Below, in pieces: positions 8,542-63,689 of a stretch of DNA of 64,000 nucleotides. A model generated the notes under the pieces. The model made no database searches. It was given only the letters and a program-made list of their open reading frames with translations, and was not told the DNA's origin. This stretch comes from a virus, in IMG/VR virus record IMGVR_UViG_3300042922_000850, positions 32,001 to 96,000 of that record; one strand, 5' to 3'. Every line of letters begins with the position of its first letter. Within the stretch, counting starts at the first letter, position 1. The translations under genes and the position numbers were made by a program.

Positions 8542-8556
8542 GTATAAGAGATAAAA
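8542..8556 (+). promoter_or_regulatory. conserved phage promoter-like motif GTATAAGAGATAAAA (1 of 31 copies)
   Basis: repeated motif upstream of plus-strand units. Confidence 0.75.
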
Positions 8557-8591
8557 GGAATAATTGTAATAATAAAGGAGGATTTTAAAAT

Positions 8592-8771
8592 ATGGGATTG
8601 GCGAAAGCGATTGACATAGGAGCAAAAGGAATGAAAGTGGTAGTGAGTTTTGGATCGGGAATAGCGATAACAGCACTAGGAGTAAAAGCAAAAAAGATAG
8701 TAAAAGTAATTAGTAATACTCACATTGATAAGCAAGCAAAATGGATCAAAGATACATTTAATATTCATTAA
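8592..8771 (+). CDS. small hydrophobic cassette protein (59 aa, MGLAKAIDIG...)
   Basis: manual ORF; AAGGAGG RBS; purine-loaded codons. Confidence 0.65.
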   Translation: MGLAKAIDIGAKGMKVVVSFGSGIAITALGVKAKKIVKVISNTHIDKQAKWIKDTFNIH

Positions 8772-8791
8772 ATAAAAAGGAGGCTTTAATA

Positions 8792-9124
8792 ATGGAAGCA
8801 CAAGTAATAATTAGAGAGATTGGTAAAGAATTAGTAAAAGGAAGAACAGTAGCAACAGCATTAAAAATACTTACGGGAGTAGGAATTGGCGTAGTATCAG
8901 TAAAAGCAGGAGCAAAAAAGAAAGAAGAAGGAGAAATGTTTGGCGACAACACAGAAGTTAAAGATAACAAAAAAATCGCAATAATAGGTATAGGAATGGC
9001 AATTGGAGCAACAGTAATTGTAGCAGCAAAAAATGCAGTACCAAGAATAATAGCAGCAACAAAAGTAGCGGCGGAAGTATGGACAGAAACAACAGAGAAT
9101 GGAGTTGAAATAACACACTTTTAA
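8792..9124 (+). CDS. small membrane protein (two hydrophobic segments)
   Basis: 110 aa; AAGGAGG RBS; purine-loaded. Confidence 0.7.
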   Translation: MEAQVIIREIGKELVKGRTVATALKILTGVGIGVVSVKAGAKKKEEGEMFGDNTEVKDNKKIAIIGIGMAIGATVIVAAKNAVPRIIAATKVAAEVWTETTENGVEITHF

Positions 9125-9134
9125 TAAAATAAAC

Positions 9135-9152
9135 GGGCAGCGTAAGCTGCCC
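9135..9152. terminator. bidirectional terminator GGGCAGC-GTAA-GCTGCCC
   Basis: GNRA-capped hairpin between converging cassette and terL. Confidence 0.7.
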
Positions 9153-9160
9153 AAACTTTT

Positions 9161-10783
9161 TTAAATTGTTCCACCATAGGCACTGGAAAACTCAACTGCA
9201 GTTCCTCCGCCACCGCCTTTTCCATATAATTTAGCCGCTAGATATGCATACACGCACGAATGCAACCCATCGTCGGGTTGGCCTTCCGGGTGAGTATAGA
9301 ATAAATCCTCAGATTTTCCGCTTTGAGCTTTACGATACTCCGCAAGCTCAACTAAATGATGGTCATAAAGCCATGAATATTTTGATCTATCCGAACCTGG
9401 CCATAAAATTTCTTTTTTGTGAACAGCGGTAATATATTGTTGCATTACTTCTGTACGATTAACGACCCACATTGTTTTTTGTGGATTGTATTTTGCTTTC
9501 TGATTTTGGTTAAATGAGTAGTAGCACGCGGCTACCCGACTACCAAACAGAGCTCTTAATTTTTTATACTGAACAAATCCAAATCCCCAATCGACGATAG
9601 CATATGCAATACGAAATAAATTCATCAGGTTGCAAATATCTCTTAATTGCCAATCCGGGTCTAATTCTTCGCCCTTTTCATATCGTTTATTGAATATCAT
9701 CTGAAATCTTCCTGATGAATTATATGAATAAATAGTTACAACTGTAAATGACTTTTCACCAGTTCCCCAGTCTACACCCATGAAATTCTTAGTATTAGAG
9801 AATTCTCTTTCGGCTCTAGGATATAGCTTTAAGTCATTGGTGCTGATACCGGCAAGAACCAATGAAGTAAACGGTTTATCTGCATTTTCATAGCTACGAC
9901 CAAGCACCTCGTTGTGGAATTTATCCGAGGAATAAGTCGTATACTTTGCCCAAATATCGTCTGCCTGTATCCATGGCACCATAAGTTGAGAAATACGGAA
10001 TCCTTTTAACTTTCTATCCGGTTGTAACTCATACCAAAAGCCGTTAATGATACTGGCTTTTGGTAAATCTCGCTTACATTTTCGGCATACAAATCTGGTA
10101 GGTTCAAGGTTCTTGATACCCATGACCTGATGCGTATTACAATGCGGGCATTTAACAATCCATTCGTTTTGAGTAGACCGATCCCAATATTGTTGGATTG
10201 TATTACTGAAGGTCTTAGGAGTGCCAGTATACCAAGTTACCCTCATTCTGGCTCCGGCATCCAAAGCATGCGACTGGGTCTCCTTTATAACTGGAATGGC
10301 ATCAATGTGAATATCTTGAATTTCATCACCCCACACACCGTTTACAGTGATACCACGAATATTGTCTGCCATTCCAAAACAATGTTTAAAATAATTAATG
10401 GACCCATTATTAAATTCTTTAAATTGTACAGCCTGTGAATCCTGTTTCCCAATGAAATTGTTTTTTACAACTTGATCCTGACTATACTCATATATCTTGC
10501 CAATTCTTTCTTTTGAAAACTCACGCACTTGGGAAGTCAATGGCGCAAAATATAACGCTTTAAAATGTGGCTTCGTTAATGTTAAAGTACCTATCATTGT
10601 AGAATTTGTAGTAGATTTTTCTACTTGCCGGCCCGACATAATAATGCCTTCTTCGATGTCTGCATCATAGATGGGTTTTAAGTAGTGTCGGTCCGTTAAC
10701 CGAAACGGCCTACCATCTAATTGAAATGTGGCTTCTGCGAACACAGACGGCACTACCTGTATCTTATTTGCTATTTCGCTCAA
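9161..10783 (-). CDS. terL: terminase large subunit
   Basis: Walker A-like SGRQVEKST, Walker B VWGDEIQD, coupling motif YTGTP, CPHC...CRKC Zn finger, nuclease MGVDWG and PDDGLHSCVYA. Confidence 0.9.
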   Translation of the reverse strand: MSEIANKIQVVPSVFAEATFQLDGRPFRLTDRHYLKPIYDADIEEGIIMSGRQVEKSTTNSTMIGTLTLTKPHFKALYFAPLTSQVREFSKERIGKIYEYSQDQVVKNNFIGKQDSQAVQFKEFNNGSINYFKHCFGMADNIRGITVNGVWGDEIQDIHIDAIPVIKETQSHALDAGARMRVTWYTGTPKTFSNTIQQYWDRSTQNEWIVKCPHCNTHQVMGIKNLEPTRFVCRKCKRDLPKASIINGFWYELQPDRKLKGFRISQLMVPWIQADDIWAKYTTYSSDKFHNEVLGRSYENADKPFTSLVLAGISTNDLKLYPRAEREFSNTKNFMGVDWGTGEKSFTVVTIYSYNSSGRFQMIFNKRYEKGEELDPDWQLRDICNLMNLFRIAYAIVDWGFGFVQYKKLRALFGSRVAACYYSFNQNQKAKYNPQKTMWVVNRTEVMQQYITAVHKKEILWPGSDRSKYSWLYDHHLVELAEYRKAQSGKSEDLFYTHPEGQPDDGLHSCVYAYLAAKLYGKGGGGGTAVEFSSAYGGTI

Positions 10784-10880: not shown

Positions 10881-10895
10881 GTATAAGAAATAAAA
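10881..10895 (+). promoter_or_regulatory. conserved motif GTATAAGAAATAAAA
   Basis: repeat copy. Confidence 0.75.
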
Positions 10896-16620: not shown

Positions 16621-17145
16621 TTATGCGATATCAACAACATCGCCCAATTTATAGCTACGTGATACTTTGCTGCGCAGAGTACTATTCGGGTTTAAAACAT
16701 CACCTTTCACTCTCACTGGTTGAATTTTCTTAGGGGATAAGCCTGCCACAGTATTTGTTACACCTTTGTCTGCAATGCCTATGTTCGTAACCGGCCCGGT
16801 TATTTGTTTTGGTGGTTGTGCAATAACAGAGGATACATCTTTTGTAACATTCGATGCGGGCACCTTCGCTTTAATTGAGCTCCCTATCATGCCACCAACT
16901 AAAGCACCTTGCAACGCACCACTAAGTTTATTACTTTTTAAATTGCCATTTTCATCAGTTGACGGTTTTGCGGTTAAAGCCCCTCCGACTGCACCTAACC
17001 CAGCTCCGGTCAAAGCCTTTTTTGTGACTGACTTCGCAGCAAAACTTTTAACTGCATTCGCAAGAACAGCTCCGGCGACAGCAATCTTTTCTGTTTCCTC
17101 TGCCATTTTATAAATACAATCTTCGTAATACGCTATTTTATCCAT
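16621..17145 (-). CDS. MDKIA-tagged glycine-zipper protein
   Basis: N-terminus MDKIAYYEDCIYKMA; two GxxxG helices. Confidence 0.6.
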   Translation of the reverse strand: MDKIAYYEDCIYKMAEETEKIAVAGAVLANAVKSFAAKSVTKKALTGAGLGAVGGALTAKPSTDENGNLKSNKLSGALQGALVGGMIGSSIKAKVPASNVTKDVSSVIAQPPKQITGPVTNIGIADKGVTNTVAGLSPKKIQPVRVKGDVLNPNSTLRSKVSRSYKLGDVVDIA

Positions 17146-17407: not shown

Positions 17408-17422
17408 GTATAAGAAATAAAA
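17408..17422 (+). promoter_or_regulatory. conserved motif GTATAAGAAATAAAA, overlapping a 20-bp inverted repeat (17358-17412)
   Basis: repeat copy upstream of the sigma factor gene. Confidence 0.7.
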
Positions 17423-17544: not shown

Positions 17545-18150
17545 ATGAGCGAAAAGGCAGATAGAAACAGGGATCTTATCATAAGGGCAAAGGAGGGTGA
17601 CGCGAAGGCACTGAATGAACTCTTCAGAATTAACGAAGGATTTAGCAGAAGCGTAGCAAAAAGATACTTAAACACTGGGATAGAATTTGAAGAACTGGTT
17701 AGCATGTGTAAATTAGGGATGGTAAAAGCCTACAATTCTTTTGATCTGGAGAAAAATATTTCATTTATAACTTATGCGTCACCCTGTATGATGAACGAAA
17801 TTAGAATGGTTCTTAGACAAAAATCAACTCATACCGTAGACGCATTATCCGTTTCCATAGAGGCAGAAATAGATACGAATTTAGACGGGCACCCCATAAG
17901 TTATAGCGATGTTTTAGCTGACGACAGGATTGAAAGTAACGTTTGTGATTTATGTGTTCAGAGACAAGAGATTTTAGATATGAAAAAAATTATAGCCGAA
18001 TTGCCAGAAAAGGAACGCCTAATTATTACGAACATATGGTTTTACGGTAAAAAACAGAGAGAGGTATCAAATATTTTAGGGATATCTCAACCGCAAATTT
18101 GCAGACTGGAAAAGAAGGCTCTTCAAAAAATAAAAAGAAAATTAGAATAA
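17545..18150 (+). CDS. RNA polymerase sigma-70 family factor, sporulation (SigF/G/K)-like
   Basis: region 2 'EELVSMCKLGMVKAYNSFDLEKNISFITYASPCMMNEI'; region 4 'KQREVSNILGISQPQICRLEKKALQKIK'. Confidence 0.88.
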   Translation: MSEKADRNRDLIIRAKEGDAKALNELFRINEGFSRSVAKRYLNTGIEFEELVSMCKLGMVKAYNSFDLEKNISFITYASPCMMNEIRMVLRQKSTHTVDALSVSIEAEIDTNLDGHPISYSDVLADDRIESNVCDLCVQRQEILDMKKIIAELPEKERLIITNIWFYGKKQREVSNILGISQPQICRLEKKALQKIKRKLE

Positions 18151-18218
18151 TATAATTGTACTTAATACATTTATAGCTCATACTTTTATCGTATAAGAAA
18201 GAAAAGGAGACGATTGAT

Positions 18219-18368: not shown

Positions 18369-18413
18369 AACACAGGGGCATATGCCCCTGTGTTTTATTT
18401 ATCTGTTTTATTT
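18350..18413. terminator. 64-bp perfect palindrome / bidirectional terminator (core GGGGCATATGCCCC)
   Basis: exact self-complementarity including the ends of both converging ORFs. Confidence 0.85.
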
Positions 18414-19258
18414 AATTCATTGATCGTATCTTTAAAGATTGGTCTATTCTCCTTCACTACCGATCTCTGGAGCTTATTCCCTAGGTTCTTATTGTAAACC
18501 CCGCTCTCTCCATAATTTAATCCAAGTTCCTTGTATCCATCAAGTTCTCCGGTGACACCCCTCATTTTTTTCATATATTCTTTTGTGGCTTTTGGCGCTA
18601 TTGCGGTATCAGCGGATTCATTTAAAATAACCTTTGGACTAATATGGGAGCTGGTGTCAGCCATAGGTACTCGCTGATCTTTATAAGCGATGGAAGACCT
18701 TTTACTTTTGAGGAGGTTTGATCCATGGTTTATCTCGTTTGCTTCGTGGCGATTGATAATTGCTTCCGTAAACTTTCTGTCAGTGGGGTTTTCAAAAGAC
18801 TTTAGATCGGCCCCCATTCCCTTTAATGTCTTCGTCAACTTATTAATGTCGCCCTTGTGAGCAAATCCACCACCATGTGCCCCAAGCATTGACTGAAAGC
18901 CTCCACCAGCTTCAAAAGCATCTTTCAGGTCTTGTCTATAGTCTTCTGGGTCTCCTCCAACCGATTTAATTTGATCCATAAAAAATTTCCTCGATTTTAC
19001 AGAACTAATAGCTCTATCAGCCATGTCATCAGGTGTAAACCCAGAAACGGATTTTGCACCCTTGCTCTTTAAGATATTTTCAGTCCCCTTGTTTAACCCG
19101 GCCAACTCTTTCTCATGATTTAAAACGCCACTACTCATTAGCCGATTAACCGATTTGTCGGAAAGACCGCCTACAACCTTTTTCCATGCTCTTGCCATGG
19201 CGCTTTTCTGCATTGCCTCTTTGTAAATTATGTCTTCGTAATATGCTACTTTATCCAT
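18395..19258 (-). CDS. MDKVA-tagged protein with HExxE motif (paralog of 62582-63547)
   Basis: MDKVAYYEDIIYKEA; RHEANE...HISPKVILNES. Confidence 0.6.
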   Translation of the reverse strand: MDKVAYYEDIIYKEAMQKSAMARAWKKVVGGLSDKSVNRLMSSGVLNHEKELAGLNKGTENILKSKGAKSVSGFTPDDMADRAISSVKSRKFFMDQIKSVGGDPEDYRQDLKDAFEAGGGFQSMLGAHGGGFAHKGDINKLTKTLKGMGADLKSFENPTDRKFTEAIINRHEANEINHGSNLLKSKRSSIAYKDQRVPMADTSSHISPKVILNESADTAIAPKATKEYMKKMRGVTGELDGYKELGLNYGESGVYNKNLGNKLQRSVVKENRPIFKDTINELNKTDK

Positions 19259-19271: not shown

Positions 19272-21920
19272 TTATTCTTTATCGTGAATATTTTTCGCTA
19301 TCACAGCTCCACCGGCAGCAACTCCACCAATACCAAGTAAGGATAATCCCATACCTTTGCCAAATCGCTTAGGATTATTTTTGATATAATCTAAAATTTC
19401 TTTGCCGCCTAACTTTTTGTAATTCTTACTATCTTTAAATACTTCTGGCCCAACGCTTCCTTCAAAGACAGCGGTATTTTTACGCCCAATATTATTATAA
19501 TTCATGCGATACAATGATTTAATATTATCTGCGTTGGGATCCAATTTCCTCACTTCGGACAAATATTCACTAAAATCTCTGGTTCCTCTTAGCTCCGGAT
19601 TATCTACTTCTTTGAGTTTCCATGAGGGAACAGATGCCTTTAACGTCTTTCTCTTTTTAGCCTCTTCTTGAATTTTTTTCGCTTGTTCAATCGGGTCAGA
19701 GAACACCCAACCAGCAGGGTTAGTTTTCATCGCTTCTCTTTGAGCGTAAACATTACCCACACTGTCTGCTACCATCTTTTTCCTACCAAAGTATACTTTA
19801 TTCGCCTGTTGCTCTTTGGATAGTCGTACTTGACTTGTAATATTATCCTCATCAAGAGCCTTAGAAGCATCGAGGCCGCGTTCTAAAATACTATCGACAT
19901 TGTTTCTGTGAGTGTTATGATACATCTTTTCTCTTCCTGTCAGATTTCCACGGTCAAGTTGATGCTTAGTTACTGCTGCACCCGTGATAGCGGTAGCGGC
20001 AGCCACAGCGTTCTCGTTATCATTATCTTCGTCTTTTTTTGCCGCTTTATAAATTCCCTCTTCATACATTGCGATTTTATCAATGTATGCTGCCGTCTTA
20101 TCAGCACCTCTTAACTCACTCTTAGATTTTTGTGCACCGCCAGTATAAGTTCCTTTATACACAGGAACTTCCTCCATTAACAACAGCTTAGATGCCTCCA
20201 TGCGGTGATGTCCATCAAAAAGAATTTTCTTCCCAGGAGTTTGAGGACGAATACCATTTAGTTGGTTAACTATAATGAACGGCTCCACTTTCCCCTTATC
20301 TTTTTGAATACCTTCAGCAATGCTAAGGACCTTCTCTTGCTTTATAGGCTTATTAATGCCCTGTAAGTTCTTAATTTTCTCCGTGGTCTTTTCCCACTTA
20401 TAATTCTTTGCCATAGCAAGAGCACCATCTACATTTGGCGTCTTATATTCATGAGAAGTTGCCATCATCGTAGCAACCTTGCGGGCGATGTCGTCAGAAA
20501 GAGCGGCTTCAATTGCGGGAATCTTACCATCCTTACCAACTTGGTCGTCTTCTCTGGCAGATGCAGCTTTTTCAAAGTTTGAAGATTTCTTACACTTTAA
20601 TTGTTCCATGATATGTCCTGGCGAAACCTTTTTTAAAGCTACGTCATAGTGCTTTGCCATATCTCTGAAGGTTTTAAAATGTTCTTCCGATATAATATCA
20701 ACATCCTTATCAGTGTAGTGTTCAATATCATTATCGTAACGAAGGGGTTTAAAACTTCCCTTTAATTTATACATAGAACACGGTTTATCCAAGTTTACCG
20801 CATCGGTATATTCCAGCCTAGTTCCCTTGTAATTACTTTCATCAGGGACATCTTTGTTACTGGTCTCTACCACAAACCTTGCGTTCCCATCGTTCCAACG
20901 AGCTCCAAACGCCGCCGCAAAAGAAGGATCCTTGGAGACAAAGATCACCTTACCCTTGTTGTTACCGGAAGTATCCTCAGATTTCCGAAACTTTTTAATA
21001 TCCTGAACTCTGGATGCGTGATACATAAATTGTTCTTCGGCTGTTTTAAGGATTTCTTCTTCATACATCTCAGCCTTCTTTAACCACGATTTAAAGCCTC
21101 TTACTTTTTCAGGGAGCGTACTTGCGTCCCCATCAAAATTAATGCCATTATCGTCAACGTAGGCGATTGCCGGAGGTTTTTTATCGGTAACATCATCGAC
21201 TTCGATATCATTCTCTTGCAGGTATTTTTTAATTGCATCAATCCCACCTGGTTCGGCGCAACGGGTGGACACGACGATAACCTTGTGGTCTTTGCGTAAG
21301 TCCTGAATAGCTTCTTTAATCCCCGGCACAGGTTCGTCAGGGATAATATTGTTACCCTCCCACCCGCTTTTATAAGAGTGGATAACGCCATCAAAGTCGA
21401 ATACGATGTTGGGCTTCTCTTCAGAAGCTTTCTTTTCCAAGTTATTTTTATAAATCTGACGCACCTCATTGATTACGTCATTCTCTAATCGCTCGGTCGA
21501 GCCTTTTGTTTTTGAGTAGTTCTCTTGGTAGTCCTTGGTATTCTTGGCAATATTATCGCCAATTTTGGATCCTACAGCCATTCCTGCAGTCATTCCGGCC
21601 ATAGGGAGAACAAAACCAAGACCTGCGCCGGGATATTTTTTCTTTGAAAGAAACATCGGGGTCATTCCAATGGCTGTTCCGGGGAGTAACCCAACAGCCA
21701 TCCCTTTAGTTTTTGCATCTTGCGTTTTAAGATTTAATTGCTTTTCTTTTTTGGAATTTGTATAATCTGGATGACTTTCAATTAATTCTTGGGCTTTATT
21801 GTACAGAGGATCATAATCATTCGGATCACCATCTGTCATATCATAAATTTCATTGTAAATTTTTCGACTGATTAATGCCTCTTTATAAATTTTTTGTTCA
21901 AGTTCCGTTGTCTTATCCAT
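19272..21920 (-). CDS. multi-domain tagged polyprotein: glycine zipper + HAD hydrolase + ART-like + ParB-like + ART-like/TM
   Basis: FDFDGVIH...VVSTR...KPPAIAYVDD; YHAS...IFVSKDPSFAAAFG; ILFDGHHRMEAS; YHNTHRNNVDSILERGL...VYFG; domains separated by tag copies or KxA sites. Confidence 0.65.
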   Translation of the reverse strand: MDKTTELEQKIYKEALISRKIYNEIYDMTDGDPNDYDPLYNKAQELIESHPDYTNSKKEKQLNLKTQDAKTKGMAVGLLPGTAIGMTPMFLSKKKYPGAGLGFVLPMAGMTAGMAVGSKIGDNIAKNTKDYQENYSKTKGSTERLENDVINEVRQIYKNNLEKKASEEKPNIVFDFDGVIHSYKSGWEGNNIIPDEPVPGIKEAIQDLRKDHKVIVVSTRCAEPGGIDAIKKYLQENDIEVDDVTDKKPPAIAYVDDNGINFDGDASTLPEKVRGFKSWLKKAEMYEEEILKTAEEQFMYHASRVQDIKKFRKSEDTSGNNKGKVIFVSKDPSFAAAFGARWNDGNARFVVETSNKDVPDESNYKGTRLEYTDAVNLDKPCSMYKLKGSFKPLRYDNDIEHYTDKDVDIISEEHFKTFRDMAKHYDVALKKVSPGHIMEQLKCKKSSNFEKAASAREDDQVGKDGKIPAIEAALSDDIARKVATMMATSHEYKTPNVDGALAMAKNYKWEKTTEKIKNLQGINKPIKQEKVLSIAEGIQKDKGKVEPFIIVNQLNGIRPQTPGKKILFDGHHRMEASKLLLMEEVPVYKGTYTGGAQKSKSELRGADKTAAYIDKIAMYEEGIYKAAKKDEDNDNENAVAAATAITGAAVTKHQLDRGNLTGREKMYHNTHRNNVDSILERGLDASKALDEDNITSQVRLSKEQQANKVYFGRKKMVADSVGNVYAQREAMKTNPAGWVFSDPIEQAKKIQEEAKKRKTLKASVPSWKLKEVDNPELRGTRDFSEYLSEVRKLDPNADNIKSLYRMNYNNIGRKNTAVFEGSVGPEVFKDSKNYKKLGGKEILDYIKNNPKRFGKGMGLSLLGIGGVAAGGAVIAKNIHDKE

Positions 21921-23751
21921 TTTTACCCTCCCGGCTTTTCTTTAATAAATCAAAGAGCAATTGATTTTGTTTGTCTTTGTGTTGAGCAACTTCATAAATA
22001 AATTCATCTGGCGTCCGGTATTGTGATTTAAAAATACCGAGTGTTTTTGGCATTGTAGCCATGTAGCGATTTACATTTACAGACCGGTCTTTAGGCTCCC
22101 TGTGGCTTAACCCACCACTACGAATACCTCGTGCCTCCATTTGTTTCATCTTCTCTGGATTAAAATGAGGGTCAAGAACACCTTCCCATGTGGTATCGTT
22201 TAAAGAAATACCTTCTCCGCCGGCGCCGCTAATCAGCATGACCTTCTTTGCCCTGTTGTTAAAATCAACAACATCCTTTTGGCGGCTCTCTTCAGTTACA
22301 CCTTTGTTACCTTTCCCAATAAACTTTCCATACTCAATCCCACGGTCTTTTAAACCCGCTTCAAGCGTATCTGTGCCGCCGTTAATTAAATGACTGAAAA
22401 GAAGTGCCTGACCGTCTGGAGTATTCTCTAAATGAGCCTCTAGGTCGTCTAAGAGTTTCTTGGTCTTAGGGGTAATCTTTGCGCTTTCTTCCAAAGAAAT
22501 ACCAGGATGAACTGAACCAACGCTGTTCATCAATTTTCTTTCCTCAATCATTTGATTATATGCTTTTGCAATTTCCTCATTTTTAAAGGTTTCCAGACGT
22601 TTTGCAACAATCATCTGCTTTATCTTGGGATTGTCAGAAAGCATATCTTTGTATATTTTAGCCTGCTTCTTACTAATTGGTACCTTTATGATATTGGTTT
22701 TCTTTTCAGGCATATTTGCGACATCTTTGATATCATCATTATCTAAATAATCAATATACTTGGATAATTTACTTGCCAATTCCTTCTTATAATTAAATCC
22801 AACGACAGGAATTCTCTTTTCATTTGTTCCTTGGTATTGCCTATCAGTACTTCGCTTCAGGTACCGTTTGGAAAACTCATCTTTGCTTTCTCCGAGATTA
22901 TGATTGCCATTTGATGCAACATCGACAAGAGGCAATACATCAGCAATTTCATTAGACACTACTGAACCGGTTAAGCCGATATAGTTTTTGTACAGTTTTC
23001 GGCTAGATTTCAATGTTTCCGTAGTAAGAGTATCTTCGTTTTTACCACGATGGCTCTCATCCGTTATGACTGTATCTGCTCCGCTTTCTTTTAAATATCG
23101 TTCAGGATCGCTACGAAACATTTCATAAGAAATAACATTATAATCAGAATTTGGGTCGACGTTGTGATGCGTTCCTTTTTTTATTTCGGTTTTGTTCCCG
23201 ATTACATTTACTGTGCTATCAGTAAATTTACTAACCCCTTGTTCTGCAAAGTTATTTCTAAGAGAAGCGGGGACAATTATAAGCGCTTTGTTTGCCTTCC
23301 CCTCTGCCTTTAGTTTCTCGAACCTAGCAATACCGGTAAGCGTTTTTCCACTACCAACGCCGTGCGCGTAGATTACACTGTCTCCTGGGCGATTAACAGA
23401 CTTTTCTTGATGCGGATATAATTTTACATCCGATTTCAGTGCAGCTTCTTTATAAATCATATCTTCATACATTGCTATCTTATCCATCTGAATACTCCAT
23501 TTCGGTTCATAGATTTGTTTGGTGGATTTAACACTGCGAAGGTTCTTTATTTTAAACCTACGGATGCCACCTTTTTCCGGATCGTATCCCCAGAAATCGC
23601 TACCATCTATTTTATAAGGTTCTACGTTCCGAAAAGAGATGTTGCCTTTTTTATCACAGTACTTTATCTGCACCATGTTCATATTATTGCCACCGAGTTT
23701 AAGTTTCTCTATGTGTTGTAAATCACGTTTTCCGAATTCTTTTTCCGGCAA
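21913..23751 (-). CDS. SNF2-type SF2 helicase with N-terminal WYL-like domain and internal MDKIA tag
   Basis: LYPHQ, GVGSGKT, DESH, LTGS, GGEGISL, QMEARGIR. Confidence 0.85.
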   Translation of the reverse strand: MPEKEFGKRDLQHIEKLKLGGNNMNMVQIKYCDKKGNISFRNVEPYKIDGSDFWGYDPEKGGIRRFKIKNLRSVKSTKQIYEPKWSIQMDKIAMYEDMIYKEAALKSDVKLYPHQEKSVNRPGDSVIYAHGVGSGKTLTGIARFEKLKAEGKANKALIIVPASLRNNFAEQGVSKFTDSTVNVIGNKTEIKKGTHHNVDPNSDYNVISYEMFRSDPERYLKESGADTVITDESHRGKNEDTLTTETLKSSRKLYKNYIGLTGSVVSNEIADVLPLVDVASNGNHNLGESKDEFSKRYLKRSTDRQYQGTNEKRIPVVGFNYKKELASKLSKYIDYLDNDDIKDVANMPEKKTNIIKVPISKKQAKIYKDMLSDNPKIKQMIVAKRLETFKNEEIAKAYNQMIEERKLMNSVGSVHPGISLEESAKITPKTKKLLDDLEAHLENTPDGQALLFSHLINGGTDTLEAGLKDRGIEYGKFIGKGNKGVTEESRQKDVVDFNNRAKKVMLISGAGGEGISLNDTTWEGVLDPHFNPEKMKQMEARGIRSGGLSHREPKDRSVNVNRYMATMPKTLGIFKSQYRTPDEFIYEVAQHKDKQNQLLFDLLKKSREGKNG

Positions 23752-23839: not shown

Positions 23840-23886
23840 GTATAAGTAATAAAAGGAAGAATCGTATTACTTCCTTTTATTACTTA
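23840..23886 (+). promoter_or_regulatory. conserved motif plus 17-bp inverted repeat leader
   Basis: TAAGTAATAAAAGGAAG-N10-CTTCCTTTTATTACTTA. Confidence 0.75.
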
Positions 23887-30588: not shown

Positions 30589-30631
30589 GTATAAGAAATA
30601 AAAGGAAATTGACTTTCCTTTTATTTCTTAT
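30589..30631 (+). promoter_or_regulatory. conserved motif plus 18-bp inverted repeat leader
   Basis: ATAAGAAATAAAAGGAAA-TTGAC-TTTCCTTTTATTTCTTAT. Confidence 0.75.
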
Positions 30632-34205: not shown

Positions 34206-34248
34206 GTATAAGTAAGAAAAGAGGGAATAATATTATTCCCTCTTTTCT
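34206..34248 (+). promoter_or_regulatory. conserved motif plus 34-bp perfect palindrome leader
   Basis: GTATAAGTAAGAAAA overlapping AGAAAAGAGGGAATAAT|ATTATTCCCTCTTTTCT. Confidence 0.75.
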
Positions 34249-39337: not shown

Positions 39338-39385
39338 GTATAAGTAATAAAAGGAAGATATCGATATCTTCCTTTTATTACTTAT
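39338..39385 (+). promoter_or_regulatory. conserved motif overlapping a 46-bp perfect palindrome
   Basis: ATAAGTAATAAAAGGAAGATATC|GATATCTTCCTTTTATTACTTAT. Confidence 0.75.
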
Positions 39386-45137: not shown

Positions 45138-45219
45138 GTTTTAGAGGGGCAATTGCCCCTCTAAACTTTCCTCCCATTTCTTGTATAAGTAATAAAAGAA
45201 ATGGGAGGATAAAAATAAA

Positions 45220-46184: not shown

Positions 46185-46269
46185 ATTTAGAGGGGCAATT
46201 GCCCCTCTAAACTTCCCTTCCATTTCTTGTATAAGAGATAAAATATAAACAATAAAGGAGGAATTAGTT

Positions 46270-48951: not shown

Positions 48952-51900
48952 TTATTCTTCGAAAGACTGTGCGCTCTCTGAATAGATTTCACCACCAAGG
49001 TCGTGGGAAGGCGCTGACATTTCGGTTACATTGCTAATTTCTTTTGGGGTTATTCCACCAAGTGCACCACACTCCGGGCAATAGCCTAAGTTATCTGGTT
49101 GACCTTTGTAACTGCACACTTCACAATTAATGTCTTTTAATCCGGTTTTAGGATCAATTGTGGGTTCCTCAGGAACAACATTACTTTCTTTCTTTGCCTC
49201 TTCCTTTGTCGGAACATTCATCTCTGCCTCTTTAAACAGTTCATCAAGTTCTTCGGAAGCTAACTTCGAGACTTTTACATTTTTGACCGCATTTTTTATC
49301 GCTTTGACTCCGGCTCCTGCAAGTGCTCCAATTCCTACACCTGCAGCTCCTCCTGCGATAGCGTTGCTTGCAGCTTCACTACCATAATCAGATGGTAGTG
49401 CGGTTGGATTAACTTCTTTTGCTTGGTCAACCGACTTTTGATAAGCTGCTCCACTACCCATAAGACCGCCAATAGCTGCACCACTAAGTGCGCTAGCTTC
49501 TTTAGCGAGTTCATCGAGTTCTTCAGATGCATGCTTAACCGCTTTTGATTTTGCCACATCTTTTACAAGTGCCGGTAAAGATGTAACGATATTGCCAACT
49601 GCTCCCGCACTCGCACCCAATAAACCACCTTTTACCGCTCCTTTAAGAACAGCTTTGGGGTTCTCTTCACTTTCTTTTTTTTTACCTTCTATACCACCAA
49701 GAACTGTTCCTACTCCGGCACTAAATGGAATGAGGCCGGCACCTGCTTCTTTCTCCGCAGACTCATCGGTTGCTTCAAAAGATTGTTTTTCCACATGATT
49801 TTTAAATTCTTCTTGCATTTTTGCCTTAGCTGCTTCAAATTTCTGAGTCCCTTGCTCTGATGCTTTCTGAACCACCTTAGCGCCAAGTGCACTACTAGCC
49901 AAATTCGCGCCTAGCCCAATTCCGGCTCCAGCTAACGCACCTTTAGCAACGCCTTTTAAAGTTTTGTCACGATCGTTTTCTTTGGAAGTTTTAAGACCAC
50001 CAATTGCCCCGCCAACAATTGCACCAGGGAGAACAAACCCTGCTTCTTTCTCCATAATCTCCGTCATATCATATTTTGCCGAACAAACATCGTATGCGAC
50101 TTTATGAAGGTGATCGATTTGTTCAATAGCGGCTTGAATATAATTAGGGCTAACTACTTGGTTACGGTTTTTATACTGCATTACCTTTAATTGCATAAGG
50201 TCACAAGCAACTCTCTCTAATATATCACGATTTTCTATAATATCCTTAGATACTTCATAAATTCTCGGATAATTATGAGTTTCATTAGCTGTTGATGCAA
50301 CCTTTTCTGCGAAGAAGGATGATAAGCTCATAATCTTTGCTACTTCCAAAGCTGATTGCGATTCTCTTTCTAAAGCAATCTTCTCAAACACAGACGATAA
50401 TGTCTTACCCTCAGATGCAACGTTACCTAATTGTGCTGCGATGTCTTTAACTGCACTCGGTGCTCCGCTAAGTCCATCCGATAACATGCTTGCGATTACA
50501 GAAGTTGCAAGAACACCTGCAAGTTCTTTGGGTTTTACCATTGACTTTACGGTATTTTGTATCTTTTTACCTGCAAGAGATTGAACTCTTGCGCCTTGAA
50601 GTGCTTCGATATTCGGATTAGCAGGTAAAGCATAGGTCATTTGAGGATTGTTATTTACTTTGAAGATGATCTCTTGAAACTCCGCCTGATTAAATCCAAG
50701 GAGTTTAAGAACTAACTTTAAATCGTCTTTGGAAATTCTTGTATATGTCTTTACAAATCGTTTCAATATAGCTTTTTTTGTATCAACGTAATTAATTTCC
50801 ACATCGTATGCGCCGAGTTGCTTATCTCTGCATACGATTTTAATTTTATTCTTTTCTACTGCGGCAACCTTTTCAAAAGTATCTTCGTAGCTTTCTACGT
50901 AAGCAAGTTTATCGAGATCTTCTTTGTTCTGAAGATAATCTTTAATAATGCCCTTGATTAAGATTACTCTGGTTTCCGGATCCGTTGCAAGGACAAGGTT
51001 GGTTTCTGTCCTTGCGGGCCCCTGCGTTGCATAAGGGTTTTTATCAACTTTATGATAATTGATACAGATAGAACCTTTTGACATTAGGTTAGATAGCTTA
51101 AATTCGTCCATTGCAAGTTCTTTGGATTTCTTCGCAATGAAATCACCATAGGGCATTTCAAAGAACTTTGCCCCATCAAGAGTGCAAAGATTAACTCTGA
51201 TATTAACATTTAAGATATTCTGAGTTTCACTTGTTGTTAATAAGTTTGCGATTTCTGAGTTATCATAAATGGGCGATAACTCATAGCTTTTTGTTGAGAT
51301 ATCGTTTTTGCGGTCACCGCTACCATAAGTTCTTTCGTTTATCCAATTTACTTTTGAGGGGAATAAAGCTTTGTCTCCATCGAATGCCATGAAGATATCG
51401 CCTTCTTGCAATGTGGACAGGCTCTCCATCTTTATGGAAAATTTTGTCTCTGGCGCTTTTAAGCAAAGGAAACGTTCCGAGTTGCTGAGAATTTTCACAC
51501 GAGCATCGGCGGTGATGACTAATTTTACCTTCTTCGGAGCTTTGTCAGCAAAGGACATAAAATTATCGACAACAATGCCGTTAGTCATGGAAATCTCGTT
51601 ACCATTTTTCTCAGGAAAAGCAATGACTGTGCCGTTTGGTAATTTAATAGCATCGTCATATTGTAAGTTCTTCGCCTTTTCAAATAATTTAAGTTTCTCT
51701 TGGTCATCTGGGACGTTAATCTCAGCCGCCATTTTCTCCATTTCAAGTTTCACTTCTTCTGAAGCTTTTCTCTCAAACTCTTGATTAAGAACTTTCAGGT
51801 CAGCTTCAGTGAATTCTTTAATTGTTGCAGCCTTTTCAAGGAGTTCATCAATCTTCTCTGCAGCATAGATATAATTTTGGCCAGATGGACTACTATGCCC

Positions 51901-52473
51901 AACCGCTTGATCTCTAATTTGCAGAACGTTTCCAAGAAATCCTGTACTTGTAGCTGGGTTGTTCCTGGTATCAAGACCAACATAAGGGTCATCTGTATTA
52001 TTTTGGCGGTCTTTCTCCTGTAATTGCTGTATAGCGTAAACGACCTTTTTCATGTTTTCTCTAGAGTAAGGAACTCTGGTTCCTTCGGATTGAATAACAT
52101 CAAAAGGGATAAGTTCTCCATCAATAACCATAAACGGGAGTTCAATTACTTTGCCAAAATATTTGATTGCAACTACACCATTCGCATCTGAAACATAATC
52201 AGAATGTGCTTTATCCATCTCTTCGGGGTTTAGTTGTATAGCCACATTCGGTGTGCTTGGGAAGAAGGCTAATTCATTAAGCACGTACTTTCTAATAAAA
52301 GTCTCTATATTATCTGCTGTCGGCTGATAAATATCTATCCCTGCATATTTCTTAATAGCAAGATCCTCTTTGCTTAAAGAATAGTCTCTTGCTTCTTTCT
52401 CAAAGCCAAAAGACAAAGATGCTCCAAAGGCATTCGATATATTTCTCAATCTCTTATCCATAATAAGCTTCAC
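48952..52473 (-). CDS. large putative virion/head protein with >10 KxA sites, three C-terminal glycine-zipper modules and a Zn ribbon
   Basis: 1173 aa; EKEAR, EKAAT, EKMAA, EKVAA, EKEAG x2, ASEELDELAKEAS, ASEELDELFKEAE; CEVC...CPECG. Confidence 0.6.
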   Translation of the reverse strand: MKLIMDKRLRNISNAFGASLSFGFEKEARDYSLSKEDLAIKKYAGIDIYQPTADNIETFIRKYVLNELAFFPSTPNVAIQLNPEEMDKAHSDYVSDANGVVAIKYFGKVIELPFMVIDGELIPFDVIQSEGTRVPYSRENMKKVVYAIQQLQEKDRQNNTDDPYVGLDTRNNPATSTGFLGNVLQIRDQAVGHSSPSGQNYIYAAEKIDELLEKAATIKEFTEADLKVLNQEFERKASEEVKLEMEKMAAEINVPDDQEKLKLFEKAKNLQYDDAIKLPNGTVIAFPEKNGNEISMTNGIVVDNFMSFADKAPKKVKLVITADARVKILSNSERFLCLKAPETKFSIKMESLSTLQEGDIFMAFDGDKALFPSKVNWINERTYGSGDRKNDISTKSYELSPIYDNSEIANLLTTSETQNILNVNIRVNLCTLDGAKFFEMPYGDFIAKKSKELAMDEFKLSNLMSKGSICINYHKVDKNPYATQGPARTETNLVLATDPETRVILIKGIIKDYLQNKEDLDKLAYVESYEDTFEKVAAVEKNKIKIVCRDKQLGAYDVEINYVDTKKAILKRFVKTYTRISKDDLKLVLKLLGFNQAEFQEIIFKVNNNPQMTYALPANPNIEALQGARVQSLAGKKIQNTVKSMVKPKELAGVLATSVIASMLSDGLSGAPSAVKDIAAQLGNVASEGKTLSSVFEKIALERESQSALEVAKIMSLSSFFAEKVASTANETHNYPRIYEVSKDIIENRDILERVACDLMQLKVMQYKNRNQVVSPNYIQAAIEQIDHLHKVAYDVCSAKYDMTEIMEKEAGFVLPGAIVGGAIGGLKTSKENDRDKTLKGVAKGALAGAGIGLGANLASSALGAKVVQKASEQGTQKFEAAKAKMQEEFKNHVEKQSFEATDESAEKEAGAGLIPFSAGVGTVLGGIEGKKKESEENPKAVLKGAVKGGLLGASAGAVGNIVTSLPALVKDVAKSKAVKHASEELDELAKEASALSGAAIGGLMGSGAAYQKSVDQAKEVNPTALPSDYGSEAASNAIAGGAAGVGIGALAGAGVKAIKNAVKNVKVSKLASEELDELFKEAEMNVPTKEEAKKESNVVPEEPTIDPKTGLKDINCEVCSYKGQPDNLGYCPECGALGGITPKEISNVTEMSAPSHDLGGEIYSESAQSFEE

Positions 52474-52512
52474 CTCTCTTAATAATATTAAACGTTATAT
52501 CCGTCTGGAAAT

Positions 52513-52541
52513 ATTATAGCACAAATGAGTTCAATTTTAAA
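52513..52541 (-). promoter_or_regulatory. sigmaA-like promoter TTTAAA-N17-TATAAT (extended TG)
   Basis: upstream of the 1173-aa gene. Confidence 0.55.
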
Positions 52542-52550
52542 AGTCTATCT

Positions 52551-53100: not shown

Positions 53101-53186
53101 CAAAACCCTTCATCTTTGACCTAGCATTTTAACTTTACCTCTTTTCCAGTATAAGAGATAAAACAAAACACAGGAGGAATAAAATT

Positions 53187-53381: not shown

Positions 53382-53527
53382 ACACAAGGATAGAGAAACA
53401 AAAGGACATATGTCCTTTTGTTTCCGTTTCAACCACGCCCACCACGTTGTTAATGATATCCGATGCCCAGCTTTATTCCTGCTGTTTTTCTAGTATAAGA
53501 GATAAAACAAAACACAGGAGGAATAAA

Positions 53528-53752: not shown

Positions 53753-53870
53753 GGCTCTTGTCTTTCGCTTCAACCACGCCCACCACGTTGTCAAGGACAT
53801 CAGGTGTCCAGTTTTATTCTCGTCGTTTTTCTAGTATAAGAGATAAAATAAACAAATGGAGGAATTAAAA

Positions 53871-54164: not shown

Positions 54165-54316
54165 ACAAAAGGGAGCGAAAGCTCCCTGTGTCTTTTTCCT
54201 TTACCCCGTCCACCTCGTGCACGAGGTTCTCTCGGACATGCCGTGTCCGTTTTATTCTCCATGTTTTTTTCCTATAAGAAAGAAAATAAAACAGAAAGAT
54301 AAAGAGGTAAGAGATT

Positions 54317-54535: not shown

Positions 54536-54664
54536 GCCTCGCATCTTTTTCTTCCAATGCTCTAATTTTCTCCGCTCACCATGCTGACCGGACATCCCAT
54601 GTCCACTTTATTCTCCCTGTTTTTCTCCTATAAGAAAGAAAACAATATTAGGAGGTAACACAAA

Positions 54665-54952: not shown

Positions 54953-55031
54953 GGGCATTTGCCCTTAGTTTTATTTTCCCTATTTTCCACGTATAAGTAA
55001 GAAAATAAACAAAAGAAAGAAGGAATAAATT

Positions 55032-55541: not shown

Positions 55542-55624
55542 ACAAGAGGGAGCGAAAGCTCCCTTAAACTTTTCTCTTTTTCTCCTATAAGTAAGAAAAC
55601 AACGAAAGAGAGGATTTAAAGATT

Positions 55625-56809: not shown

Positions 56810-56953
56810 GCCAACCACGCTCCTTCCTTTTGTAGTAATTATATCACAAACCTGTCGACCACGCACACCACGTTTTTCTGGTATAAGTAATAAAAGGAGG
56901 ATGTTAATGCCTTCTTTTGTAATCGACACAATAACAGAAAGGAGGGGCAGTTA

Positions 56954-57109: not shown

Positions 57110-57215
57110 CAGAGATATAGCAAGGAAGACAGAGTGGCAGTGCCACTCTGTCTTCACCATTATACCGCTTTTATCTGGTATAAGTAATAAAATAAAGAGA
57201 ATGGAGAATTTGATC

Positions 57216-57413: not shown

Positions 57414-57485
57414 GCCTCTACTCTTTATTTTCTACTATTTTCTGGTACAAGAGATAAAATAAAGAGAATAGAGGAGAAATTAACT

Positions 57486-57632: not shown

Positions 57633-57801
57633 ATAGATGATTAACAGGGTGAGGAGCAATAGGCTCCTCCTGTTATTTGTCTGACCACGCCCACCACGTG
57701 CGCGATGTTTACAGCATGGTTATAAACTGCTATAAATTCTTGTATAAGTAATAAAAGAAGAACAACAATGTTCTTCCAAATATATTTTATGGAGGGTTTT
57801 C

Positions 57802-58356: not shown

Positions 58357-58426
58357 ACTATACCGGTCTTTAATTCACGCCCTTTTCTGGTACAAGAAAT
58401 AAAACAAACAATAGGAGGAAGATAAA

Positions 58427-58624
58427 ATGAAAATCGGAACAGTAGTAGTAATCAGTACATTAACAGCAGCATTAGGATTTACAATAGGCATATTTGTAGG
58501 CGCAGTAGCAGGTGCAATAGCAGTATCAGAAATAATAACAGATAAGGAAGATGAAGACAGCAACGAAAGTGAAAGCAGTAATGAAAGTGAAAGCAGTAAA
58601 GACGTCTTCTCATTCCTTGTATAA
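58427..58624 (+). CDS. single-TM cassette protein, acidic tail
   Basis: 65 aa; stop codon lies inside the next promoter motif. Confidence 0.65.
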   Translation: MKIGTVVVISTLTAALGFTIGIFVGAVAGAIAVSEIITDKEDEDSNESESSNESESSKDVFSFLV

Positions 58625-58655
58625 GTAATAAAATAAAGAGAAAGGAGAGAGTATT

Positions 58656-58856: not shown

Positions 58857-58932
58857 TAGTGAAGAGGGGTTAAACCCCCTCTTCTTTCCTCGTATAAGTA
58901 ATAAAATAAAGAACGCAGAGGAGGAAGAATAT

Positions 58933-59136: not shown

Positions 59137-59217
59137 TTGCCCTTTTGTCTCTTCTCTCATAAAATCCTTTATCTTATTGTATAAGTAATAAAATAAGAGA
59201 AAGGAGGTAATTTATAT

Positions 59218-59549: not shown

Positions 59550-59628
59550 AACCTCTCTTTCACTATCATCTGGTATAAGTTATAAAACAAGAGAAGTCTT
59601 GTTATTTTATTTTTAAGGAGGTAAGGTT

Positions 59629-61597: not shown

Positions 61598-61639
61598 AAA
61601 TTTTAGGAATAAAAATATTCTGGTATAAGAAAGAAAAGG

Positions 61640-61711
61640 AAAGCAGTAGCTCAGATGGGAGAGCACCAGTATTAATACTGAGGGTGGCAGGTTCGATACC
61701 TGTCTGCTTTT
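61640..61711 (+). tRNA. tRNA-like RNA / pseudo-tRNA with non-canonical anticodon arm
   Basis: acceptor AAAGCAG/CTGCTTT, T8A9, D arm GCTC-AGATGGGA-GAGC, T arm GCAGG-TTCGATA-CCTGT; anticodon arm CAGTATTAATACTG has no 7-nt loop; no encoded CCA. Confidence 0.7.
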
Positions 61712-61783
61712 GTTTTCATTGTTTTTAAAAAACAATGTATTTCTAGTATAAGGAATAAAACAAAACAAAGGAGGTTCATAAGT

Positions 61784-61996
61784 ATGAACGAGGAAGTATA
61801 CGAGACAACAGAAGAGGTAACAGAGGCAGTAGCAGGTATGGATGACAATCGAATAAAGATTGCAGTAGTAGCAGTAGCGGGGGTTGTATTATTAGCAGGA
61901 GCAGGTTTTACATGGCTGAAGTTAAGAAAGAAAAAGAAATTGGCAGTATCAGATGCAGACATCGATTTAGATGAAGTTGCAGCAGACGAACAATAA
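61784..61996 (+). CDS. single-TM cassette protein
   Basis: 70 aa; GGAGGT RBS. Confidence 0.7.
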   Translation: MNEEVYETTEEVTEAVAGMDDNRIKIAVVAVAGVVLLAGAGFTWLKLRKKKKLAVSDADIDLDEVAADEQ

Positions 61997-62093
61997 GGTT
62001 TAAGAACCGGGGGCATATGCCCTTGGTTCTTTTCTGCTAATTGAGCGGATTTTATTGTATAAGAAATAAAACAAATGAAAGGAGAATTAAAGT

Positions 62094-62279
62094 ATGGACG
62101 CAACAACAGATAAGAAAGTAGGAGAGGTATTAGTACAGACAATTGTATTAACTTCAAAAGAAGGAACATTAAAAGGATTTATCGCAGGATGTATTGTAAC
62201 AGGGATAGCAATAGGTGGTATTTATATTGCAAACAAACATGGAATAGCAATTAAAAGCTTCATCAAAGAAAAGATTTAA
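62094..62279 (+). CDS. single-TM cassette protein
   Basis: 61 aa; AAGGAG RBS. Confidence 0.65.
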   Translation: MDATTDKKVGEVLVQTIVLTSKEGTLKGFIAGCIVTGIAIGGIYIANKHGIAIKSFIKEKI

Positions 62280-62360
62280 ATATATAGGAGGCGCTTGCCT
62301 CCTATATTCTTTCTTTTGATGTTGAATTTTCTTGTATAAGAAATAAAAGAATAATAGATA

Positions 62361-62552
62361 ATGGAGGATACGAGAATGAGAAAGTTGATAAGAAGAAAAA
62401 TCAAAGAGACAATGGTAAGCGTAGGATTTAAGTTAGTAACTACAGTTATGGCACTTGTAATGACGGCAAAAGAGTTGTGGAATATGAGAGAAACCAGGAA
62501 AGACATTAATAAAATGAAAAGAATGTGGAGCGAATGGGCAAACGAAAAATAA
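62361..62552 (+). CDS. small cassette protein
   Basis: 63 aa; true start may be the second Met after GGAGG. Confidence 0.6.
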   Translation: MEDTRMRKLIRRKIKETMVSVGFKLVTTVMALVMTAKELWNMRETRKDINKMKRMWSEWANEK

Positions 62553-62581
62553 AGAAAAGAGGAGGCGTTGCCTCCTCTAAG

Positions 62582-63547
62582 TCATTTTTTTATTCCAAAT
62601 AAGCTACTAACATAATCGGATACATTCTTGCTAGCGACTATAGGGGCTCTTTTTTTGAAATTTTCTTCTGCTACTTGCTTTTCCATTTGGTCAGCAAGTT
62701 TTTTATCATAAACACCGCTATCACCATATTTTAAACCATAAGTTTCATAAGTTTTACCCTTCTGAAACTTCTTAGCGCCAGGATACATTTTTAAATATTT
62801 AGGGTCTGCAGTTTCTCCTGAAGTGGCCCGAAGTGCTTTATAGAAATTTCTTGTGTGCAAAGGAGCAACTGCAACATTAGCAGATTCCCTTGCAATTACT
62901 TTGGGAGATACGTGAGCACTATTGCCGATTTGCTCTGGCCGAAAATCATGTTTAATCATGCCATTCTTCTTGTTTTTTAATTTCTTCTCAACCTGTTGAG
63001 TAGCTCTGTTTTCATCTACTTCATGTCTAAGACTAATCGCCTTATTCCATTTATCAAAATCTTTTTTTACCGGTTTACTCATGCTAAAAACATGTTCTTT
63101 CTGATAAACATTATCTGCAAACTCTTGGTCAATTTTTGATTTTGATGGTGCATAAGCTACCCTGCTCTTCGACACAGATCCGGCACCGTCTTTTACTCCG
63201 GATATACTCCGAGAAGCGGCTTCAAAATTTACCTTCAGCGCTTTTTCAGCAGGATTAATACCCTTGCTTTTAAATTTTTGTTCGGCTACATATTCTGCAT
63301 TAGGCTTATGGATATCCTTAAACAGTGCTTTTCCATAAGTTAGTGGATTGGATGTTGTCTTAACCTTATAATCTTTAGCGATTGCTTTCGTTCCCTTTTC
63401 CAATCCCTTTAGTTCCCTGTTGTAATTTAGGATATTCTTTTTTACTAACTCTCTACGAGCAAGATCAGATAAAGTACCGAGTTCTCGTTTCCATGCTCTA
63501 CTGGCTTCTTTATAAATTAGTTCTTCATATGCTGCGATTTTATCCAT
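62582..63547 (-). CDS. MDKIA-tagged protein with HExxE motif (paralog of 18395-19258)
   Basis: MDKIAAYEELIYKEA; RHEVDE...HVSPKVIARES; own TGaTATAAT at 63581-63589. Confidence 0.65.
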   Translation of the reverse strand: MDKIAAYEELIYKEASRAWKRELGTLSDLARRELVKKNILNYNRELKGLEKGTKAIAKDYKVKTTSNPLTYGKALFKDIHKPNAEYVAEQKFKSKGINPAEKALKVNFEAASRSISGVKDGAGSVSKSRVAYAPSKSKIDQEFADNVYQKEHVFSMSKPVKKDFDKWNKAISLRHEVDENRATQQVEKKLKNKKNGMIKHDFRPEQIGNSAHVSPKVIARESANVAVAPLHTRNFYKALRATSGETADPKYLKMYPGAKKFQKGKTYETYGLKYGDSGVYDKKLADQMEKQVAEENFKKRAPIVASKNVSDYVSSLFGIKK

Positions 63548-63689
63548 CTATACAAGTCTCCTTTGCTTGGGTTTAGAATAATTATATCACGACCTCGCCC
63601 ACAACGCACTTCACTGCATTTCACCGTACCCTTTATTCCATGCTCTTTTCTAGTATAAGAAATAAAACAATACATAGGAGGAAAATAGC

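Follow-up and report, generated by a model that had tools for sequence, protein, structure and literature searches.

At the late promoters of T4 (TATAAATA, gp55) and the middle promoters of SPO1 (gp28), a phage sigma-like subunit redirects the host core RNA polymerase (RNAP). Other phages use an RNAP of their own: the virion RNAP of AR9 reads early promoters of the form AAATATATATTAT-6N-G+1 (PMC5312081), and in N4 and the crAss-like phage phi14:2 an injected RNAP serves the early genes, the late genes being left to the host sigma70-type enzyme (PMC4496689; bioRxiv 10.1101/2020.03.07.982082). Mass spectrometry of purified virions of the Salmonella phage Arash found the RNAP beta subunit (gp206) as the top protein, together with beta' (gp216) and a sigma factor (gp10); its authors consider carry-over of abundant proteins possible (PMC10585845). 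The RNAP-encoding Caudovirales named mReC have been described by phylogeny only, the words promoter and sigma being absent from the paper (Weinheimer and Aylward 2020, PMC7481178). Here, we analyze a repeated promoter-like motif, STAYAAGWRAKAAAA, in an uncultured phage (IMG/VR record IMGVR_UViG_3300042922_000850). The window is the 64,000-nt stretch comprising bases 32001-96000 of the 166,758-bp contig (37.7% G+C, with a short overlap of the contig ends). In the reading that we favor, with a probability of roughly 0.65, the motif marks a promoter class of the phage's own transcription machinery and would be read by a phage RNAP.

Twenty-nine exact matches to STAYAAGWRAKAAAA were found in the window, all on the + strand, against a mean of 0.02 expected by chance from dinucleotide-preserving shuffles, none of which (0/100) reached 29. 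A mismatch search made against GTATAAGWRAKAAAA added one-mismatch copies at 59573 (GTATAAGTTATAAAA) and 61746 (GTATAAGGAATAAAA), and the total of 31 same-strand copies agrees with the count in an earlier note on this DNA, where the pattern was first described. Across the whole genome there are 39 exact copies on the + strand and none on the - strand, and the core GTATAAG taken alone is found 49 times on the + strand and four times on the - strand, or 37 times and not at all when intergenic sites are counted. In the alignment of the 39 copies, conserved sequence begins 7 nt ahead of the motif and extends 3 nt past its end (-7 to +17 in motif numbering, with the first G as 0), giving a conserved block TTTTCTn-GTATAAGWRAKAAAA-BRA and bearing out the earlier claim that conservation reaches downstream of TATAAG. 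The last base of TATAAG, at -7 of the predicted promoter, is G in 39/39 copies.

As is general for bacterial promoters, the motif is intergenic, co-oriented with the downstream gene and at a short, fixed distance from a ribosome-binding site or RNA gene. The start codon is 36-45 nt downstream of the motif start in most units, with a purine-rich leader and a strong Shine-Dalgarno site in between, and nine of the 11 divergent gaps have a copy facing the + gene. Judged from its sequence context, the motif very probably functions as a promoter. Terminator-like sites are abundant in the array of small-gene cassettes (52.5-64 kb), numbering 28 where 6.0 are expected, and at least 10 such sites are placed 20-45 nt ahead of a motif copy. 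No shared -35 element was present in the alignment of the 39 copies, which holds no information there beyond the terminator U-tracts; the lack of a common -35 reported previously was thus upheld, whereas the TTTATT reported for a subset of copies was rejected as a -35 box, being the U-tract of the terminator ahead of the motif.

The tRNA-like RNA previously noted behind one copy is identified by ARAGORN as tRNA-Ile, 2 nt past the motif, which confines the transcription start to position 16 or earlier, within the motif or at its end, since a later start would truncate the tRNA. In three genomes, a tRNA gene follows the motif, with its first base at motif position 16, 17 or 23 (gaps of 2-9 nt). 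Every multi-copy variant retains an A at position 13, six bases past TATAAG, and we infer that transcription starts there; the promoter would then comprise a T-rich tract, G at -13, TATAAG from -12 to -7, a 6-nt spacer, A at +1 and the purine-rich leader with its Shine-Dalgarno site, which is the geometry of a sigma-type open complex. The tRNA-Ile (anticodon AAT) is the sole tRNA of the genome; the related genome G004 has six tRNAs on the late strand, one with the same anticodon.

Four units have a strong hairpin in which the motif, through pairing of its positions 2-14, supplies the 5' arm. These leader hairpins fold at -19 to -26 kcal/mol, or at -6 to -15 kcal/mol if the RNA starts at position 13, as RNA from the predicted +1 loses most of the stem. 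The embedded hairpins have 15-22 bp and are followed by U-rich sequence; they also occur at copies in three relatives (G001, G004 and L063), and their 3' arm co-varies with the variable motif position (AAGT/ACTT versus AAGA/TCTT). We read them as terminators that would form in read-through RNA only.

For housekeeping factors of the sigma70 family, no promoter base is more conserved than the T at -7. The motif has G at this position in all 39 copies and in all relatives, in place of the T of a -10 TATAAT, and has neither TTGACA 16-18 nt upstream nor a TGn extended -10; position -14 is variable in this genome, and TG at -14 is found only in the relative G002. Sites of the sigma70 type were not enriched in our scan (46 versus 41.4 expected). 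Because the G at -7 is invariant and a -35 is missing, the reader is very probably a factor other than sigmaA. Compared with the -10 boxes of the sporulation sigma factors (SigF/G/E/K), T at -12 and A at -11 fit the xATA start, and G at -13 and G at -7 do not. GTATA as a SigF-type -35 box was rejected, as the start would land inside the tRNA or past start codons, and to our knowledge no Bacillus-type alternative sigma consensus matches the motif.

The motif is absent from structural genes and confined to non-structural ones: around 30 small one-gene cassettes, the tRNA, ThyX, a transglutaminase-like protein, a transglycosylase, a radical-SAM protein, some replication operons and the gene of the phage sigma. 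In the regions ahead of minus-strand genes, exact TATAAT was found 25 times in the sense of the gene versus 11 times antisense, several copies with TGn in front; the host-like promoters previously proposed for the structural genes are therefore partly supported, by their -10 boxes, and their -35 boxes are weak. From their distribution, the motif and TATAAT classes look mutually exclusive. A megablast search of 52-64 kb against GenBank phages gave no match, and a text search of the literature for the motif string turned up only the yeast mitochondrial promoter, ATATAAGTA(+1), which is read by a T7-like RNAP with Mtf1 (PMC4558008), and no paper describing the motif. The yeast promoter is nearly identical to motif positions 1-8, but no T7-like RNAP was detected here, and we treat the resemblance as chance between AT-rich signals.

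The search of the genome for RNAP subunits that the earlier note had called for revealed a gene for a 2301-aa fused beta-beta' RNAP (genome 25094-31999, - strand), its start codon 2 nt left of the window. Pfam matches run through Rpb2 domains 3, 4/5, 6 and 7 and then Rpb1 domains 1-5, and this order within one chain identifies a fused beta-beta' RNAP of the bacterial type; its NADFDGD active site is the only one in the genome. A phage-encoded RNAP accordingly accompanies the motif, as in the phages with early promoters read by a virion RNAP (N4, phiKZ/AR9 and crAss-like). The genome search found no alpha subunit, and the large open reading frames (ORFs) of 1169, 882 and 822 aa gave no RNAP Pfam match. 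T7-like RNAP (PF00940) had no match in this phage, G001 or G004, the control genomes of that search also being empty.

The RNAP gene lies in an almost gapless - strand operon in the order large terminase, three unknown genes, portal, a 56-aa ORF and RNAP. The 56-aa ORF, directly upstream of RNAP, is 55-57% identical in two relatives (L152 and L063); downstream of RNAP are a 124-aa coiled-coil protein (L002:9598-9972, -) and an HU-like DNA-binding protein (L002:9141-9446, -). None of the small flanking proteins matched a Pfam family except the HU-like one; they may be accessory subunits. Five late-strand proteins share a tag, (M)DK(I/V)AxYExxIYK, which is N-terminal in four and internal in one; that of 21913-23484 sits at a second in-frame start of a 612-aa ORF, and one of the tagged proteins is an SNF2/DarB-like helicase.

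The first gene of a + block, which has a strong TGATATAAT promoter, encodes a 331-aa protein without a Pfam family (L001:13611-14606, +) that contains DFDGDTM, the heptapeptide of the RNAP active-site loop. The clade-conserved 1169-aa protein belongs to no known family. Its N-terminus is beta-rich and its C-terminus has a CxxC...CxxC zinc ribbon, and it also contains long helices and a stretch rich in Gly and Ala. It was rejected as a second RNAP, as it had no Pfam or PHROG match and no usable Atlas match, and nothing indicates RNAP; its AlphaFold model (8 sequences) was of low confidence (mean predicted local distance difference test score, pLDDT, 49.5) and too poor for a fold search.

The RNAP belongs to a sharply bounded family of about 40 protein clusters (2250-2340 aa, 41-76% identity, contigs up to 170 kb), beyond which the next matches have identities of at most 30%. 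The order terminase, portal, small ORF, RNAP, with gaps of a few nucleotides, is kept in 6/6 relatives of which the neighborhood was read. The GTATAAG core is kept in eight relatives with RNAPs 41-72% identical, always on the strand opposite the RNAP gene: L152 (RNAP 72%), L063 (54%), L153 (52%), L154 and L155 (both 46%, with a single copy each, GTATAAGTTAARTAG), G001 (44%, eight core copies), L062 (44%, 48.6% G+C, two weak copies, GTATAAGAATAATAG and one more degenerate) and G002 (41%, six core copies within 2 kb, with TG two bases upstream). In the complete 160.5-kb genome of G004 (RNAP 46%), a variant, GTATAAGAYATTAAA, is present in about 26 copies, all confined to a single strand. GTATAAG showed no strand bias (61 versus 66) in 78 loci from phages with more distant RNAPs (23-31% identity). 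When IMG/VR was scanned with the full 20-nt pattern, most matches were single and due to chance, and only one contig (G001) had several. Taken across these sequences, GTATAAG is fixed in the clade while the next eight bases drift by lineage. A long conserved motif that is confined to non-structural genes and kept in relatives is also what characterizes the early promoters of virion RNAPs.

The ORF at 17545, previously proposed as a sigma factor, does contain sigma regions 2 and 4 and is of the SigF/E/K type. The sigma genes of this phage, L063 and G004 are only 29-34% identical. The relatives' sigma (L063:23095-24693, -; L145:18338-19783, +) has a C-terminal extension of 250-300 aa with repeated segments; this genome has the short sigma and a separate 262-aa protein (L001:18208-18996, +) with several sigma-region-4/Myb-like helix-turn-helix repeats. 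A modeled complex of the RNAP clamp region (residues 1100-1500) with sigma residues 1-125 scored 0.00, without controls, and says nothing either way.

Together, the RNAP gene, the G at -7 and the core kept in relatives support the proposal of the earlier note that the motif is a dedicated early/middle promoter for a phage-specific polymerase; its timing, start site and reading enzyme are inferred. The phage RNAP is probably the enzyme that acts at the motif, and the reader would be the single-chain beta-beta' RNAP with a -10-reading specificity subunit, either the phage sigma or another, unrecognized protein. Besides sigma, the 56-aa ORF before RNAP and the 124-aa coiled-coil protein after it are candidates. 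As the RNAP gene lies in the terminase-portal (head-morphogenesis) operon clade-wide, the enzyme is probably synthesized late in infection and packaged for the following one. If the packed RNAP were injected, which we rate at slightly less than even odds from this gene arrangement and from the RNAP detected in Arash virions, the motif promoters would form the early class, and the late genes would depend on promoters of the TATAAT type and, for their recognition, on the host sigmaA holoenzyme or possibly a phage sigma. Were a holoenzyme injected, this would also explain how the sigma gene can lie behind its own promoter class; the phage sigma as motif reader is a more tentative proposal still. 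The most far-reaching version, which we regard as rather unlikely, is that a virion-packed beta-beta' RNAP with a reader of G at -7 provides a channel orthogonal to sigmaA from the first minute, with the promoter doubling in some operons as a terminator arm that stops upstream transcripts and not its own.

Several observations weigh against this reading. The RNAP lacks the 15-aa N-terminal tag of the five other late-strand proteins. Some + strand replication genes (genome 110159, 124402 and 132584) have TGnTATAAT boxes and not the motif, which suggests a third, middle class, or dual control. The helix that reads -12/-13 in sigma70 differs between the phage sigmas (PCMMNEIRM, PMIMGEIRR, RIVQNEILM) despite the invariant GTATAAG core, which weakens the case for the phage sigma as the motif reader, and the sigma gene of L063 is preceded by a TGGTATAAT box downstream of the motif, consistent with initial transcription by the host enzyme. 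Lastly, if the motif-hairpin pairing acted in the promoter's own RNA, it would put the start further upstream.

The same sigma observations bear on an alternative in which the phage sigma acts like SPO1 gp28 and brings the host core RNAP to the motif, the phage RNAP serving another class or stage; the host sigmaA enzyme would first make the phage sigma, which would then activate all motif units, including its own gene. The sigma-like geometry of the motif (a -10-like box, 6-nt spacer and A start) fits this scheme, as do a phage sigma of the SigF/E/K kind, built for a Firmicute core, the position of the sigma gene on the motif strand in this phage, G004 and L063, and the sequences ahead of that gene (TTGTAC 16 nt upstream of TATAAG, and the extra TGGTATAAT box in L063). 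Under this scheme, however, the 2301-aa RNAP, kept throughout the clade, would lack its own promoter class; the -12/-13-reading helix varies while the core is constant, and no sigma was found in G001, a 67%-complete genome. We consider it improbable.

Less probable again are ordinary strong early promoters of the unmodified host holoenzyme, with sigmaA or a constitutive alternative host sigma. TATAAG equals TATAAT at 5/6 positions, the G002 copies with TG two bases upstream resemble an extended -10, and the T-rich upstream tract could serve as an UP element, yet the G at -7 is found in 39/39 copies and all relatives, the -35 is missing (the TTTATT being a terminator tail), eleven more downstream bases are conserved, true TATAAT boxes are used elsewhere in the same genome, and GTATA as a -35 would place the start inside the tRNA or coding sequence. 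That the motif is no promoter but works in RNA or DNA, for processing, as an element of leaders or translation, or as a terminator's 5' arm, is highly improbable. The hairpins in four units agree with such a role, and the motif would always lie within the 5' untranslated region if upstream transcripts read through; most copies, however, are without a partner arm, and as the motif comes after terminators, little read-through RNA would contain it. Copies also precede the tRNA as well as mRNAs and face the + gene in 9/11 divergent gaps, into which no transcript should come from upstream on the same strand, and the best-conserved part is the -10-like box, at a constant distance from an A.

Table 1. 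Motif copies and other features of the window (positions in window numbering)
Feature	Position	Strand	Remarks
Motif copy	8542..8556	+	Divergent gap, facing small + gene
Motif copy	10881..10895	+	Start codon of 110-aa gene 41 nt on
Motif copy	17408..17422	+	Precedes phage sigma gene; TTGTAC 16 nt upstream of its TATAAG
Motif copy	18191..18205	+	49-aa gene 28 nt downstream
Motif copy	23840..23854	+	Heads long + block (23903 onward)
Motif copy	30589..30603	+	
Motif copy	34206..34220	+	
Motif copy	39338..39352	+	
Motif copy	45183..45197	+	Terminator hairpin ahead; start codon 37 nt on
Motif copy	46229..46243	+	Ahead of transglutaminase-like gene
Motif copy	53149..53163	+	First in small-gene cassette array
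Motif copy	53493..53507	+	
Motif copy	53834..53848	+	Terminator 53795-53809 upstream
Motif copy, CTATAAG variant	54272..54286	+	Terminator upstream
Motif copy, CTATAAG variant	54628..54642	+	Terminator upstream
Motif copy	54991..55005	+	Terminator upstream
Motif copy, CTATAAG variant	55585..55599	+	Terminator upstream
Motif copy	56881..56895	+	
Motif copy	57178..57192	+	
Motif copy, GTACAAG variant	57445..57459	+	Terminator upstream
Motif copy	57742..57756	+	
Motif copy, GTACAAG variant	58390..58404	+	
Motif copy	58619..58633	+	
Motif copy	58892..58906	+	Terminator upstream
Motif copy	59179..59193	+	Terminator upstream
Motif copy, one mismatch	59573..59587	+	
Motif copy	61623..61637	+	Directly ahead of tRNA-Ile
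Motif copy, one mismatch	61746..61760	+	
Motif copy	62057..62071	+	Terminator upstream
Motif copy	62334..62348	+	Terminator upstream
Motif copy	63653..63667	+	
Hairpin with motif as 5' arm	23843..23886	+	-19.4 kcal/mol; -6 if RNA starts at predicted +1
Promoter-embedded hairpin	30591..30631	+	-18.9 versus -6.9 kcal/mol; arm co-varies with motif position W
Hairpin overlapping 3' part of motif	34215..34248	+	
Promoter-embedded hairpin	39340..39385	+	-26.5 versus -10.7 kcal/mol
tRNA-Ile (anticodon AAT)	61639..61712	+	ARAGORN; begins 2 nt after motif copy 61623-61637
Phage sigma factor, 201 aa from ATG	17545..18150	+	Regions 2 and 4; nearest SigF/SigE/SigK; motif copy ahead
56-aa conserved ORF	3..173	-	Abuts RNAP gene start
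Portal gene	188..2158	-	Same operon as RNAP
Large terminase	9161..10783	-	Strand block of portal and RNAP
Tagged late-strand protein	16621..17145	-	
Tagged late-strand protein	18395..19258	-	
Tagged late-strand protein	19272..21920	-	Tag internal
Tagged late-strand protein	21913..23484	-	
Tagged late-strand protein	62582..63547	-	
1169-aa protein	48952..52461	-	
TATAAT -10 box, late-strand gene	8478..8483	-	TTGTTT 17 nt upstream
TGCTATAAT box	52513..52518	-	Ahead of 1169-aa late-strand gene
TGATATAAT box, late-strand gene	56838..56843	-	Within cassette array
TGATATAAT box	63581..63586	-	Ahead of gene for tagged (MDKIAAYEELIYKEA) 321-aa protein

Two divergent control regions (L001:12950-13610 and window 52470-53140) contain arrays of ATGGACAT / ATGGACTTTGA repeats beside TGnTATAAT boxes. 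The arrays look like regulator binding sites or an origin.

If the favored reading is true, the clade offers a compact transcription system, in which one polypeptide with both large RNAP subunits is paired with a short, sharply defined promoter that differs from that of the host by single bases (G at -7 and G at -13). It would make testable how a -10 reader shifts its flipped-base specificity, and would serve to test whether a bacterial-type RNAP can function without alpha and whether such an RNAP can be delivered through a phage tail. In practice, the motif is an annotation key for this uncultured lineage of about 145-170-kb phages, the hosts of which are probably among the Firmicutes, and shows where the non-structural transcription units lie and on which strand.

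The division of labor described in the earlier note, with a phage-specific enzyme at the non-structural genes and host-like promoters at the structural ones, was called there the reverse of the usual arrangement. That description does not hold, as N4 and crAss-like phages use an injected RNAP early and the host enzyme later, and phiKZ and AR9 also begin with a virion RNAP. Like N4 and phi14:2, this phage has its RNAP gene among virion genes; however, N4 packs a single-subunit RNAP of the T7 type, which recognizes hairpin promoters, the crAss-like phages have a highly divergent two-barrel protein, and a -10-like box is used by neither. The early promoters of AR9 and phiKZ resemble the motif in being long, AT-rich, highly conserved boxes that lack a -35 and have their start (here predicted) some 6 nt further on; dozens of copies precede early or, here, predicted early genes, and theirs are read by a multisubunit-type virion RNAP. 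The RNAPs of AR9 and phiKZ are split into 4-5 very divergent chains and accompanied by a second, non-virion RNAP, whereas this phage has only one RNAP, a single chain with strong Pfam matches to bacterial beta/beta', and another promoter consensus. Arash, a distant cultured phage, similarly encodes a bacterial-type phage RNAP beside the portal gene, but with separate subunits, 27.5% RNAP identity and no described promoter. The likeness to mReC is one of gene content, both being uncultured tailed phages with beta and beta' of a multisubunit RNAP. T4 late and SPO1 middle promoters share the single-box or phage-specific -10-type design, but T4 late promoters drive structural genes, from which the motif is absent. 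By these comparisons, the strategy would be one known from N4 and crAss-like phages and the promoter style one known from the AR9 and phiKZ virion RNAPs; what is new is the single-chain enzyme close to bacterial beta/beta', the consensus sequence and a near-sigmaA design with G at -7.

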